This document shows positions 1 through 9,600 of a stretch of 9,600 nucleotides of DNA, in pieces (positions within the stretch are counted from its first letter, which is position 1; each line of letters starts with the position of its first letter). The notes beneath the pieces are model-generated. The model saw only the letters and a program-made list of their open reading frames with translations, was not told the origin of the DNA and did not search any database. The DNA comes from a virus (taxonomy: Duplodnaviria > Heunggongvirae > Uroviricota > Caudoviricetes): IMG/VR virus record IMGVR_UViG_2609460125_000002, positions 1 to 9,600 of that record; one strand, given 5' to 3'. Both the position numbers and the translations under genes were made by a program.

Positions 1-274
1 AACATCAATGTCGCGTAAAGGTAACTGTTACGACAACGCTCCGATGGAAAGCTTCTGGGGAACGCTGAAAAATGAGAGCCTGAGCCACTATCGTTTAATA
101 ACCGGGATGAAGCCATCTCAGTAATACGGGAATACATTGAGATTTTCTACAATCGTCAGCGTCGTCACTCTCGTCTGGGGAATATCTCCCCGGCAGCCTT
201 CAGGGAAAAATATCATCAGATGACTGCTTAAAAAAAGAACAAATGGTAGTGTCCGCTATTGCCAGTACACCTCA
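1..274 (+). mobile_element. 3' portion of an IS3-family insertion sequence (OrfB C-terminus plus right terminal region); exact IS not identified; right boundary approximate (269-274)
   Basis: Translation of 2..124 gives TSMSRKGNCYDNAPMESFWGTLKNESLSHYR, the conserved DDE-region signature of IS3-family OrfB. The adjacent integrase reading frame becomes non-integrase sequence at about 270-275. Terminal bases ...CAGTACA / ...CCTCA fit the TG...CA tips of IS3-family ends. Confidence 0.6.
2..231 (+). pseudogene. IS3-family transposase OrfB, C-terminal fragment with a frameshift
   Basis: Frame 2 reads ...GNCYDNAPMESFWGTLKNESLSHYRLITGMKPSQ* (stop 122-124). Frame 1 from 97 reads NNRDEAISVIREYIEIFYNRQRRHSRLGNISPAAFREKYHQMTA* (stop 229-231), the expected continuation of the same domain. 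A single missing base near 95-97 (cgttt-aataacc) joins the two. Confidence 0.6.
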
Positions 275-939
275 TCAAGGTCTGTAACGTTGGAACGGCG
301 AAGGCCTGTCGTGATTGCAAACATGACCACAGGGAAGAAATGAGGAGCAATTTCTGCAAACAGGCGCTTCGATTCCTCCTCTGTAAGCCATCTGATTCGT
401 CCATTCTTAACGCGTGGTGTTGATATTTTGGGCGCCCTGTCAAGCCATCCCCATTCAACAGCCATATTGAGAATAGCGCGAAGTATTGCCAGATGCCGCG
501 TCTTCGTTCCTTTGCTTGCCAGCTTTGGTTTATACTCCGGCACTGGCTTGCCAAGCCGCAAACACCTGTCCCGGCTCATTTCCCAGTTCAGGCGATGGCG
601 GCGGTTTTCCATCCCGTCTACCGCCTCCATTATTTTTTCTGTTGTTATGTCAGAGAGAATGGTTTCTCTGAAGTGCAACATCCAGAACGATATAATGCTC
701 TTGTCATCATCAATGGACTTCTTATCCGATTTCTCACGCAGCCACCGTATGCAGGCTTCCTTGAATAGCTTTTTCGGCGATTCCCCGAGATTTTTTACTC
801 TCCACGCTTCTGCTTTCAGACGATCGTGAAGTTCTTGCGCTTGCCTTTTGTCCGATGTTTCAAGAGAGCGTCTAACTCTTGATCCATCTGGCGCGACGAA
901 ATCGCAGTGCCACGTGCCACCGCGTAGTTTGATTGACAT
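256..939 (-). pseudogene. int: Phage tyrosine integrase, N-terminal fragment (227-aa ORF); catalytic C-terminal domain absent
   Basis: ATG at 939 preceded by AGGAGG (8 nt spacing). Protein has the N-terminal/core-binding region and ends just after a box-I-like motif AITTGLRRSNVTDL; no box II (HxxR...Y) follows. The last ~6 codons and the stop (256-258) appear to be supplied by the IS end. Confidence 0.7.
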
Positions 940-1235
940 GCTTTAACCTCCTGCACATCAACCGCATTCACCGCGCTATTGTGTCTCACAGACTTAAGCG
1001 CCGCAATGCAGTCTGACTTGCAAATGCGATATGGACTTTTAGGTTTATCTGGATTTATCTTTGCGGCCTGAAGTCGTCCACTTCGTATCCACTGTGTGAT
1101 AGTGCCTTTGTCTACCTTCAGATACGACGCAGCTTCTTCACGAGTGAAGATTTCTTCTTCCACCTGGAATCTCCATTTGTTGGATTGACATGATTGCGGT
1201 AGGTCTGGATATCTTGAGAAATGAACTGGCCTCAT
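816..1235 (-). CDS. xis: Excisionase-like helix-turn-helix protein (Xis/AlpA type); start uncertain (ATG 1235 with weak RBS, or GTG 1163 with GGAGA RBS)
   Basis: Motif FTREEAASYLKVDKGTITQWIRSGRLQAAKI resembles excisionase-family HTH domains; position immediately upstream of int. The 3' end overlaps int by 124 nt in another frame. Confidence 0.5.
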   Translation of the reverse strand: MRPVHFSRYPDLPQSCQSNKWRFQVEEEIFTREEAASYLKVDKGTITQWIRSGRLQAAKINPDKPKSPYRICKSDCIAALKSVRHNSAVNAVDVQEVKACQSNYAVARGTAISSRQMDQELDALLKHRTKGKRKNFTIV

Positions 1236-3582: not shown

Positions 3583-3876
3583 TCAGTCATTACTGATAGC
3601 GCCATAGCGTGAGCGGTAATTACGCAGGCGCGGGTCAATTTCAGGGAAGTGGGTGTATGTGGCTTTGCGGAATGGTCGGATTGATGTCTGGTAAATTCGC
3701 TCGCGTTCTTCTTTCTCTGCAAGCCATATACAGTGGCGAAATCCCTTTTCCTCTTTCGTTTCCTGCGGTAGCGACATTATCAGGTCGTAGTTTTTCCTGA
3801 ATTTATCCAGCACCTCCGATACGGAATTGCCGGAACAGCGGCGCGCGTCGTCCGCACCATATAGAGGCGCTGGCAT
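3583..3876 (-). CDS. Hypothetical phage protein, 97 aa
   Basis: ATG at 3876 with AGGAGAA 5 nt upstream; no recognisable motif. Confidence 0.5.
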
Positions 3877-3889
3877 GATTTTCTCCTGA

Positions 3890-4396
3890 TTAAATTGCGT
3901 GAATAGCGTGACGAGGGAAGGGGAGAGTTACTGGTGCAAAGGGTATATCGTCGTCAAAATCCATAGGAGGTTCGTTGTGTTGTGCTGGTGATGATTGCTG
4001 CTGTGGCTTCTGTGATTGCCTGCTGGCTGCTTGTTGTTTGCTGTCGCCAATGCCGCCAAGCATTTGCATCACGCCATTAATTCCGACATGAACCTCGGTT
4101 GTGTAACGGTCTTGCCCTGACTGGTCTTTCCACTTTCTGGTTCTCAGCATTCCCTCGAAATAAATCTGATCACCTTTTTTCACATACTGCCCCACGACCT
4201 CAGCCAGTTTCCCGGATACAGCAACACGATGCCATTCAGTCAATTCCTTTTGCTCGCCAGTATTTTTATCTCGCCATTGTTCTGATGTGGCTATTGTCAG
4301 GTTAGCGAACGCTGTTCCTGATGATGAGTATCGGACTTCCGGGTCTTGTCCTACCCGACCAAGGATAATCACCTTATTTACGCCTCTGCTTGCCAT
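3890..4396 (-). CDS. ssb: Single-stranded DNA-binding protein (SSB), 168 aa, with a 15-residue extension after the DDDIPF tail
   Basis: N-terminal OB-fold sequence [23 protein letters not shown]...TEWHRV...[12 protein letters not shown] and the acidic tail ...[13 protein letters not shown] are textbook SSB. The ORF then continues [15 protein letters not shown] before TAA at 3890-3892. Confidence 0.9.
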
Positions 4397-5104
4397 TTAT
4401 GCCACCTGTTTTAGTTCGTTAACTCTGATGTTCATTACCTGAACGCATTTAGCCTGCGCCTCCTCGTTGCCAGCCATTAATTGCCAGTCACGCTGATAAC
4501 GCTCGATGAGTTTTTTCTTGTCAGTTTCTGTTGACGCATAATCGCTGAAGTCTTTCAGGATTTGCTCGCAGTCAACCGATGGAGATTTCTGGTTGGTATT
4601 TTCTGGTGATGGTTTGTTATCTGATGCTGGGATTGCCCATCCCGGCAGCGATGGAGGGAGCCAGTAAAATCCTGTTCCATCCTTGAGTTTTGCCCTGTGC
4701 CATCCCTGCTTTTTATCGAGAGATGTTTGTGCGAAACCTTCCTCAAGGTTATACAGATACCGACCGATTCCCCACTGAACGGCAGCGCGCTTCATTGCAC
4801 CGGAACGACCACCTTTGACGGCTTCTACCTGCGTGTTTTCAGCAGCATCCCATTTGGTTACCCATTCGGAATCAATCTTGATTGATATGCCGCATTCAAC
4901 GCCGCCGTTGTTGGGAATATCGCGGTATTCATTGCGCCATCCTGCTTTGCCGCAAACATCGTCCAGGCGTTTCATGATTGCCCTGTTCGTGACATAAGCC
5001 AGCACCATAGCCCACACTTTTCCATCGCGTGTTTTACCGCTTTGCTGTATTCGCCATTCGATATCTTCAGGGCTGAATGGCTCATCGAATTTATTCAAAT
5101 CCAT
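4397..5104 (-). CDS. Rad52/Sak-type single-strand annealing protein (recombinase), 235 aa
   Basis: Motifs GAMKRAAVQWGIGRYLY and GKAGWRNEY resemble the Rad52 annealing-domain signature; sits immediately upstream of ssb (TAAATG junction), a typical phage recombination module. RBS GAGGTG. Confidence 0.65.
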   Translation of the reverse strand: MDLNKFDEPFSPEDIEWRIQQSGKTRDGKVWAMVLAYVTNRAIMKRLDDVCGKAGWRNEYRDIPNNGGVECGISIKIDSEWVTKWDAAENTQVEAVKGGRSGAMKRAAVQWGIGRYLYNLEEGFAQTSLDKKQGWHRAKLKDGTGFYWLPPSLPGWAIPASDNKPSPENTNQKSPSVDCEQILKDFSDYASTETDKKKLIERYQRDWQLMAGNEEAQAKCVQVMNIRVNELKQVA

Positions 5105-5651: not shown

Positions 5652-6620
5652 TTAGTAGGTTATTTTTGTTGCGAATACTTCGCCTTTTACGATGGCTGTT
5701 ATGATATTTTTAGCAACATCTTCTGATGCACCAACCTTGATAAGGTCAACAAGTATTTTGTTATTTACTTCTTTCCGGTGAGCTTTATCTTTTGCTCTAC
5801 GCTCTTCTTCGTCCTTGATTCTTTTTTCTTCTGCTATTCTGGCTTGCTCTTTTGCTTCAGCCTCGCGACGGATTCGTTCAGCCTCCTCCTGTGCTTTTCT
5901 GCGTTCTGCTTCAATTGCCGCATGCTTTTCTCTTTCAGCTCGTTCCGCCGCCTCTTTTGCTTCGCGCTGTGCTCGTTGCTCGGCTTCAATGCGTTCACGC
6001 TCTGCTCGTTCCGCAGCGGCCTTAGCTTCTGCTTCTCGCCTTGCTGCTGCTTCAATTTCGGCTTTTGCCTTTGCTTCGGCTTCTGCTCTGACTTTCTCTT
6101 CAGCTTCTCTTTTTAAGCGTTCTTCATGCTCTCGCTTTTCCTGCTCCGCTTTGAGTCTTGCCTCTTCTCTTTGGCGGTCAAATTCGCGATCCATCAAAAT
6201 CGCTATTTCATGGTCAGACTCAATTTGCTTTGCGAGAGCTTCAGCTGCTGCCTTAGCTTCTTCTTCGGCTTTAATCCGCGCCTGCTCCTCCTCATAATCA
6301 GTAAGAGGCTGGCGCGCCTTGGCTTTCAGTTCATCAAGGCGATCACGCACTGTCTTGCGGTTGGCATCAATTAGCTTTGGAATTTCCTTCAGTTCAGCAA
6401 CAAGGTCTTTGCCAAGACCATCGAGATATGTTTTCGTCTGCGCAACTTTATACGCCAGAGAAGCGATCTCCTTTCTGCCCTTTGCCGTTGTGATATCAGG
6501 CACAAAGGACATAACTTCACGTTCAACCTTTTGGAGAATTTCTTCAATCTGGTCGGCAGACTTAAATACAGTCATTGCATTTGCTTTTTCAATAACAACT
6601 AAATCTGTTACTTCACTCAT
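5652..6620 (-). CDS. Hypothetical phage protein, 322 aa: N-terminal domain, ~150-residue E/A/K/R-rich coiled-coil (TolA-like low complexity), short C-terminal domain
   Basis: ATG at 6620 with GGAGG 5 nt upstream, directly after a terminator hairpin; the track start at 6674 reads through that terminator. The underlying DNA is repetitive and produces spurious plus-strand ORFs. Confidence 0.6.
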   Translation of the reverse strand: MSEVTDLVVIEKANAMTVFKSADQIEEILQKVEREVMSFVPDITTAKGRKEIASLAYKVAQTKTYLDGLGKDLVAELKEIPKLIDANRKTVRDRLDELKAKARQPLTDYEEEQARIKAEEEAKAAAEALAKQIESDHEIAILMDREFDRQREEARLKAEQEKREHEERLKREAEEKVRAEAEAKAKAEIEAAARREAEAKAAAERAERERIEAEQRAQREAKEAAERAEREKHAAIEAERRKAQEEAERIRREAEAKEQARIAEEKRIKDEEERRAKDKAHRKEVNNKILVDLIKVGASEDVAKNIITAIVKGEVFATKITY

Positions 6621-6630
6621 ATATCCTCCA

Positions 6631-6662
6631 TCAAAAAAATTGCCCTCACACTGGAGGGCAAA
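6631..6662 (-). terminator. Intrinsic terminator (minus strand): stem TGCCCTC/GAGGGCA, 6-nt loop, followed by U7
   Basis: Plus strand 6633-6660 aaaaaaaTTGCCCTCacactgGAGGGCA; on the minus strand the hairpin precedes UUUUUUU and then the GGAGG RBS of the 322-aa gene. Confidence 0.5.
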
Positions 6663-6721
6663 GAAGATTTCCAATAATCAGAACAAGTCGGCTCCTGTTT
6701 AGTTACGAGCGACATTGCTCC

Positions 6722-7271: not shown

Positions 7272-7298
7272 CCAAAAATAAAGGCCGACTATGCGACC
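7272..7298 (-). terminator. Intrinsic terminator (minus strand): 5-bp stem with one G-U pair, loop CAUAGU, followed by UUUAUUUUU
   Basis: Plus strand 7274-7298 aaaaataaaGGCCGactatgCGACC; the loop contains the UAG stop (7289-7291) of the 207-aa gene. Confidence 0.4.
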
Positions 7299-7912
7299 TC
7301 GGAAGGAAGTCCAATCATCTTATTCAAATCTTCTACCCGTAAAGCAGGAAGTGCTGTACTTGCTTTATCTGCTTCTTTTGGTAGCAATTCTTTGCTTTCA
7401 GGCCAAACTTCAATAAGTCGCTTAACTGTTGTGACTGAGTTCAAAGCAGCCCATACATTTGATTCGATATCCTTTTTCTTGGCTTCAAGTTTTTGTTGCA
7501 ATGCGCAGATTTCATCAAACCTTTTTGTTATTTTGTGTTCTGCATCAAACATGCATTTATCTTTGGTTGGAGTAGGGAGAAATATATCTTCGCCATTGCC
7601 GTCTTTCCCATATGAATGCCATCCAACCCTTCTGCCAGATACAGTCAGATAAATTGAAGTAGAACGAAATTCGTATGAGTAAAATGAACATCCCATCTTT
7701 TCAAGTTCTTCACTTATAGCTACCAACTTGGATGATAACTGATCCACTTCCTCAGTTTTCTTTTTACCGCCAAACGCAATAACTCTGGCGTCAAGTGCAA
7801 GCTGGTTCTTTAACTTTGTTACTTCTTCAAGTTCAGTGAAAACCCCAGACTTAATTAAAGCGTTACGAGCGATTTCCTCTTTCATTCTCGTAGTTAAGCG
7901 GATTGATGACAT
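7289..7912 (-). CDS. Hypothetical phage protein, 207 aa, unknown function
   Basis: ATG at 7912 with GAGG 8 nt upstream, after a terminator hairpin; the track start (7927) is a TTG extension. No catalytic motif or strongly hydrophobic segment recognised. Confidence 0.55.
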   Translation of the reverse strand: MSSIRLTTRMKEEIARNALIKSGVFTELEEVTKLKNQLALDARVIAFGGKKKTEEVDQLSSKLVAISEELEKMGCSFYSYEFRSTSIYLTVSGRRVGWHSYGKDGNGEDIFLPTPTKDKCMFDAEHKITKRFDEICALQQKLEAKKKDIESNVWAALNSVTTVKRLIEVWPESKELLPKEADKASTALPALRVEDLNKMIGLPSEVA

Positions 7913-7936
7913 ATTAATTCCTCTCAAATAAGAAAA

Positions 7937-7962
7937 TAAAGGCCACCATCAGGCAGCCTTGT
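7937..7962 (-). terminator. Intrinsic terminator (minus strand): hairpin with UGAU loop followed by a U-rich tract
   Basis: Plus strand 7939-7960 AAGGCcaCCatcaGGcaGCCTT preceded by aaaataaa; the loop contains the UGA stop (7949-7951) of the ral-like gene; same loop sequence as the terminator at 1628-1641. Confidence 0.4.
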
Positions 7963-8143
7963 TGTTCTGTTTACCAAGTTCTCTGGCAATCATTGCCGTA
8001 GTTTGTATTGCCCATTTATCGACATATTTCCCATCTTCCATTACAGGAAACATTTCTTCAGGCTTAACCATGCATTCCGATTGCAGTTTGCATCCATTGC
8101 ATCGCTTGAATTGTCCACACCATTGATTTGTATCAATAGTCAT
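7949..8143 (-). CDS. ral: Ral-like restriction-alleviation protein, 64 aa, Cys-rich
   Basis: Four cysteines at residues 9, 15, 18 and 24; strongly resembles lambda Ral as recalled; located in the leftward operon downstream of the N-like gene, as ral is in lambda. Confidence 0.5.
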   Translation of the reverse strand: MTIDTNQWCGQFKRCNGCKLQSECMVKPEEMFPVMEDGKYVDKWAIQTTAMIARELGKQNNKAA

Positions 8144-8776: not shown

Positions 8777-8934
8777 GTTGACCTCCGATGATTGACTTTG
8801 GCGGTGACGCGACGGGTGCTTATCTTCCGGTTGCTGTCGTGCAGCTGCACTTCACGTCACCCTGAAGTGGCACACTGAATTTGGCCACCTGAACAGAGGT
8901 GATATGCTCACCTCAGAACAACACAGGTGCTCCA

Positions 8935-9600
<666 letters not shown>

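Follow-up and report, generated by a model that had tools for sequence, protein, structure and literature searches.

An IS600 element interrupts the integrase gene (int) of a Shigella flexneri lambdoid prophage at the start of the 9,600-nucleotide stretch of DNA analyzed here (the window). The account that we consider highly probable as a whole is that IS600 transposed into int at codon 221/222, duplicating 3 bp (TGA), in a prophage with a P22/Sf6/mEp213-like early region and a thrW attachment site. The insertion split int between the first catalytic arginine (R214) and the remaining active-site residues (K241, H313, R316, W339, and Y348), and the upstream piece now stops once six codons taken from the IS600 inverted repeat have been read. 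Its downstream counterpart is intact but detached, lying upstream of the IS600 left end and pointing away from it; in this orientation no promoter for it is evident, and it is probably silent. The insertion is evolutionarily recent and is common to one S. flexneri lineage, in which the SfII gtrII serotype-conversion genes lie alongside.

Two assemblies placed the window in a longer context, namely scaffold KN150717.1 of GCA_000754175.1 (L002), which is identical to the window, and a 1.77-Mb contig of the independent, gap-free S. flexneri assembly GCA_900457225.1 (L003). The window is exactly one whole draft contig of KN150717.1, and its ends run into IS600 and IS911. Gaps of 100 N adjoin window base 1 and base 9600 in L002 (L002 10940–11039 and 1240–1339, respectively); by comparison with L003, the true length is ~800 nt for the IS600 gap and ~23 nt for the IS911 gap.

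The IS600 segment and its junction with int comprise the following features:
1–274, plus strand: right-hand end of IS600 (IS3 family), equal to element positions 991–1264, with the C-terminus of OrfB (DDE transposase) and the right inverted repeat
2–231, plus strand: 3' coding region of IS600 orfB, which by the translations uses frame 2 as far as approximately base 96 and frame 1 between base 94 and the stop codon at 229–231
94–96, plus strand: homopolymer TTT where IS600 has TTTT, a 1-nt deletion that shifts the OrfB frame and is of doubtful authenticity
245–274, plus strand: right terminal inverted repeat of IS600, reverse complement TGAGGTGTACTGGCAATAGCGGACACTACC, ending ...CA, read directly off the sequence
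275–277, either strand: the only copy within the window of the 3-bp target-site duplication, which reads TCA on the plus strand and TGA on the int strand

IS600 belongs to the IS3 family, was first described in Shigella sonnei, and is plentiful across Shigella genomes. A sequence-only reading of the window had proposed that an IS3-family element truncates int just past box I, and the element proved to be IS600: window 1–274 was 99.6% identical over 274/274 nt (E = 7e-139) to copies annotated as "IS3-like element IS600 family transposase". This segment had 6,195 matching places across 2,910 E. coli genomes, and rve_2 and rve_3 Pfam matches were found in the translated OrfB C-terminus of the fragment. 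The window segment equals the full copy in L003 except for 1 nt, and it differs from IS600 solely by the one T absent from the run of four. The L003 copy is 1264 bp long with imperfect TG...CA ends and a 3-bp target duplication, and it has the orfA/orfB frame arrangement of IS600, with HTH_Tnp_1, HTH_21, and rve domains on its product.

Matching to annotated genome copies placed the IS600 terminus at window base 274 (...CACCTCA). The right repeat is imperfectly complementary to the left repeat of the L003 copy, TGAGGTAGCCTGAGTTTAACGGACACTCC, and the TG...CA ends lie at L003 11929 on the left (TGAGGTAGCC...) and at window 274 on the right. By eye, the left and right repeats agree at ~20 of 29 positions; an exact-repeat search with a seed of 9 missed them, their longest exact run being 8.

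Integrase homology begins exactly at base 275, which sets the breakpoint between IS600 and int at 274/275. From this base on, the sequence was 98–99% identical to the integrase-excisionase region of thrW-associated E. coli prophages, such as that of strain HS. Two genes overlap at this end of the operon:
256–939, minus strand: truncated integrase ORF of 227 aa, with int codons 1–221 at 275–939 and six IS-derived codons plus a stop codon at 256–274
816–1163, minus strand: excisionase (HTH_17) gene, overlapping the start of int and apparently intact, assigned by PF12728 on the called product and by the annotation at the matching position

The earlier suggestion that the int ORF reads into the right end of the IS held, with exact coordinates of 939 to 256 rather than an end near 275: the right inverted repeat of IS600 supplies residues 222–227 (DEVYWQ) together with the stop codon. 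Alignment to full-length integrases showed that the 227-aa protein is incomplete and breaks off after residue 221. Int codons 1–221 cover the arm-binding and core-binding regions and the start of the catalytic domain, up to the box-I motif TGLRRSNVTDL (residues 211–221), in which the box-I arginine is R214, so that the integrase sequence ends seven residues past it. The 227-aa fragment gave no significant match to Pfam PF00589, compared with 1e-34 for a full-length relative. Of the catalytic residues of the family (R-K-H-R-H/W-Y, the tyrosine being the nucleophile), the window ORF has R214 alone, as the sequence-only reading had anticipated for the tyrosine; the rejoined gene has the complete set.

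Residues 1–221 were 99–100% identical to full-length integrases of 384–386 aa. Compared with the mEp213, E. coli HS thrW prophage, and SfX-type integrases, all tyrosine recombinases that integrate at the tRNA-Thr gene thrW, residues 1–221 of the window's int were identical (99% identity for the HS protein); the window gene differs from all of these in being split by IS600 and in keeping only R214 of the catalytic residues. The gene at the xis position in E. coli HS and mEp213 is annotated as a helix-turn-helix protein or excisionase, and the mEp213 record describes its excisionase as similar to that of S. flexneri phage X.

The other half of int lies directly past IS600. The full 1264-bp element occupies L003 10666–11929 and is flanked on both sides by TGA (...GACCTTGA[IS600]TGAGTGGTCACAGG..., or in short form ...CCTTGA[IS600]TGAGTGG...), while the uninterrupted int of E. 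coli HS has a single TGA (...GACCTTGAGTGGTCACAGG... and ...CCTTGAGTGG...). Immediately beyond the element, L003 has an open frame of 165 codons that runs to the natural stop of int and matches PF00589 (E = 1.9e-27). K241, H313, R316, W339, and Y348 (in RYAHL), located by aligning the protein with the structures of XerA and HP1 integrase, all lie in this 3' half, outside the window. In L002, the sequence past the gap at window base 1 likewise comprises the left end of IS600, TGA, and this int 3' half; this adjacency spans the 100-N scaffold gap in L002, whereas L003 is contiguous. Rejoined, the two halves give a protein of 386 aa that agrees with Int of mEp213, a viable phage, at 385 of 386 positions, the sole difference being V287I.

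Since the int frame resumes past IS600 and the halves rejoin to a near-mEp213 Int, the catalytic half has been separated, neither replaced nor lost, which corrects the earlier statement that the IS replaces the catalytic half and that this half is missing. IS600 is a textbook IS3-family simple insertion with a 3-bp duplication and no loss of target DNA. As judged from the sequence, the int gene shows no decay apart from the insertion, given the agreement of the rejoined protein with mEp213 Int. The further proposal that element and prophage are both decayed in an old, fixed arrangement finds no support in this agreement or in the 99.6% match of the IS to common IS600.

The claim that the prophage should be unable to excise stands in so far as active integrase can no longer be produced from this gene; the loss of excision itself is what the gene structure predicts. 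The upstream fragment is expected to be unable to cleave DNA and, with no active Int coming from the interrupted gene, the prophage would not catalyze its own excision. A related integrase acting in trans, from a co-resident or superinfecting phage, could still do so.

The exact 227-aa product was found by exact look-up on 14–20 contigs from independent samples, and NCBI names it as an S. flexneri protein (accessions KGA00170.1, SPZ89795.1, and CAM3316316.1). Full-length int alleles are also present in S. flexneri, so the IS600 insertion marks a lineage rather than the whole species. None of 5,426 complete E. coli genomes contained the IS600/int junction, and an exact-pattern scan for it in the contigs of species-representative genomes found none, the lineage evidently not being in that set.

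Beyond the split gene, L003 continues from the int stop codon into the 3' part of the tRNA-Thr gene thrW (the att core) and then gtrA-gtrB-gtrII. From exactly the int stop codon on, the L003 stretch was 99.9% identical to phage SfII (L003 12429–15435), while the int 3' half had no match to SfII int. The gtrA upstream region, the thrW 3' core, and the int 3' end are contiguous (L003 12420–12700, outside the window). This gtrA-att-int junction is of the same type as the gtrA-att-intX junction of a laboratory SfI/SfX tandem lysogen (PMC3306764, Additional file 1, panel F), and the intX sequence in that file is matched by the att core and the 3' end of int. The simplest reading of this order is that two prophages would lie in tandem at thrW, a reduced SfII-type prophage and the window's lambdoid prophage with its SfX-type integrase. 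The tandem locus is the SHI-O region, which in serotype 2a strains holds the gtr genes and little other remaining SfII sequence (PMC1550401). Neither PMC3306764 nor PMC1550401 describes this IS600 insertion in the neighboring integrase. Were the window's prophage to carry gtrX at its far end, serotype 2b would be predicted. Farther on, L003 carries an IS with DDE_Tnp_1, an 85-aa acyltransferase fragment, and Mu/P2-like baseplate and tail genes.

At the opposite end of the window, the left part of IS911 occupies 8863–9600 and continues past the window (L002 906–2077). Its insertion point at 8863, marked by a CCC duplication of 3 bp, falls between the immunity region and N, 88 nt ahead of the N start. 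This site is empty in an otherwise matching contig from another sample (L004), so IS911 is not fixed here and probably arrived later than IS600. In a lambda-like layout, an IS911 in this place would probably detach the whole early-left operon (N ... xis, int) from pL, cutting early-left transcription.

Other explanations for the structure at the start of the window were weighed against an insertion of IS600 into int. Seen by itself, the 9.6-kb window shows no int 3' half, as would be the case if the IS had replaced the catalytic half and this half were gone from the genome; the window, however, merely starts within the IS, and the 3' half stands directly past IS600 with the matching 3-bp duplication in both L002 and L003, which makes such a deletion very improbable. 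Since the window is a draft contig with both ends within multi-copy IS elements, an assembly chimera formed at a repeat could also have brought IS and int together. The identical junction and 227-aa product nevertheless recur on the 14–20 contigs of independent samples, among them the gap-free 1.77-Mb contig, and the clean target duplication on both IS600 flanks argues against a chimera, so that we give this origin practically no credence. An assembly chimera and an IS-mediated deletion were both ruled out by the clean target duplication together with the independent contiguous assembly.

Two further alternatives concern the state of the interrupted parts rather than how IS600 came to lie in int. 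The OrfB frameshift could be a genuine inactivating mutation that makes this IS600 copy immobile and decaying. The base is missing from both the window and L002, and the L002 gene calls match those of other assemblies in the unique region, which argues that the assembly is not generally error-ridden. Against this, the change is one of homopolymer length at a site 94 nt from the contig end, within a multi-copy repeat of a draft assembly to which reads from other copies contribute; the same insertion reads TTTT in L003, and TTT occurs at none of the 6,195 E. coli IS600 places (best identity 99.6%). The window's other IS segment also has a homopolymer deletion relative to L003: in IS911 orfA, window 9107–9110 reads CCCC where L003 has CCCCC, and the frameshift leaves an OrfA of 95 aa (ORF 8899–9186) instead of 100 aa. 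We view a genuine inactivating mutation as possible but less likely than not, the other option being an error of the assembly. Even a real frameshift would be private to the strain, and in either case it is not ancestral to the IS600 insertion. Of the earlier claim of a 1-base OrfB frameshift, its presence is confirmed and its reading as ancient decay is not, given its place near the contig end and its absence from L003; not being ancestral to the insertion, it gives no support to an old, fixed arrangement. The IS911 segment additionally has one substitution relative to L003, at about window 9457.

The truncated Int, with its arm-binding and core-binding domains and R214 but without the nucleophile, might conceivably have been retained because it binds att sites and acts as a dominant negative. 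Its reading frame is open, it matches the first 221 aa of a functional integrase without a difference, and the contigs with this fragment all keep it conserved. Such identity is equally expected under a recent insertion, however, and the IS911 upstream of N probably lowers transcription of the whole operon; we judge retention for this role to be most unlikely. If it were true, the truncated Int could poison the integrase of incoming SfX-type phages that share the thrW site, hampering their integration or excision there, and so affect the serotype conversions open to a gtrII strain.

Under the preferred explanation, a recent IS600 insertion that left both halves of int in place, the split is genome decay of an ordinary and well-understood kind. 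IS expansion, and prophages disabled by it, are familiar features of Shigella genomes; IS600, the integrase family, thrW tandem lysogeny, and IS-crippled Shigella prophages are all already known, and the finding carries little weight outside correct annotation. For annotation, a gene cut at an IS on a contig edge should not be called deleted until the other flank of the IS has been checked, and a one-base frameshift within an IS at the end of a draft contig is no ground for inferring decay. The loss of int and the IS911 upstream of N probably help to lock the prophage array beside the gtrII O-antigen modification genes. A locked array fits the established view that S. flexneri serotype-conversion loci become fixed while their phages degrade.

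The early-left operon holds, in addition to xis and int, the following genes, all apparently intact:
3583–3876, minus strand: Abc2 anti-RecBCD protein
3890–4396, minus strand: SSB
4397–5104, minus strand: Rad52/Erf-type annealing protein
7289–7927, minus strand: Nmad5-domain protein
7949–8143, minus strand: Ral antirestriction protein

The Kil and CIII genes are also in the operon and apparently intact. A look-up of the N protein gave matches only in unrelated E. coli lambdoid prophages, where this N is widespread. The early-left module is a mosaic, with 94–97% matches to mEp213, Sf6, and N7 over about half of its length. An ORF at 5652–6674 on the minus strand (322–340 aa) consists mostly of E/A/K/R repeats (AEAKAKAE..., REAEAK...) and probably forms a long charged helix; its counterpart is labelled "TolA" or hypothetical in the mEp213 and Sf6 records.
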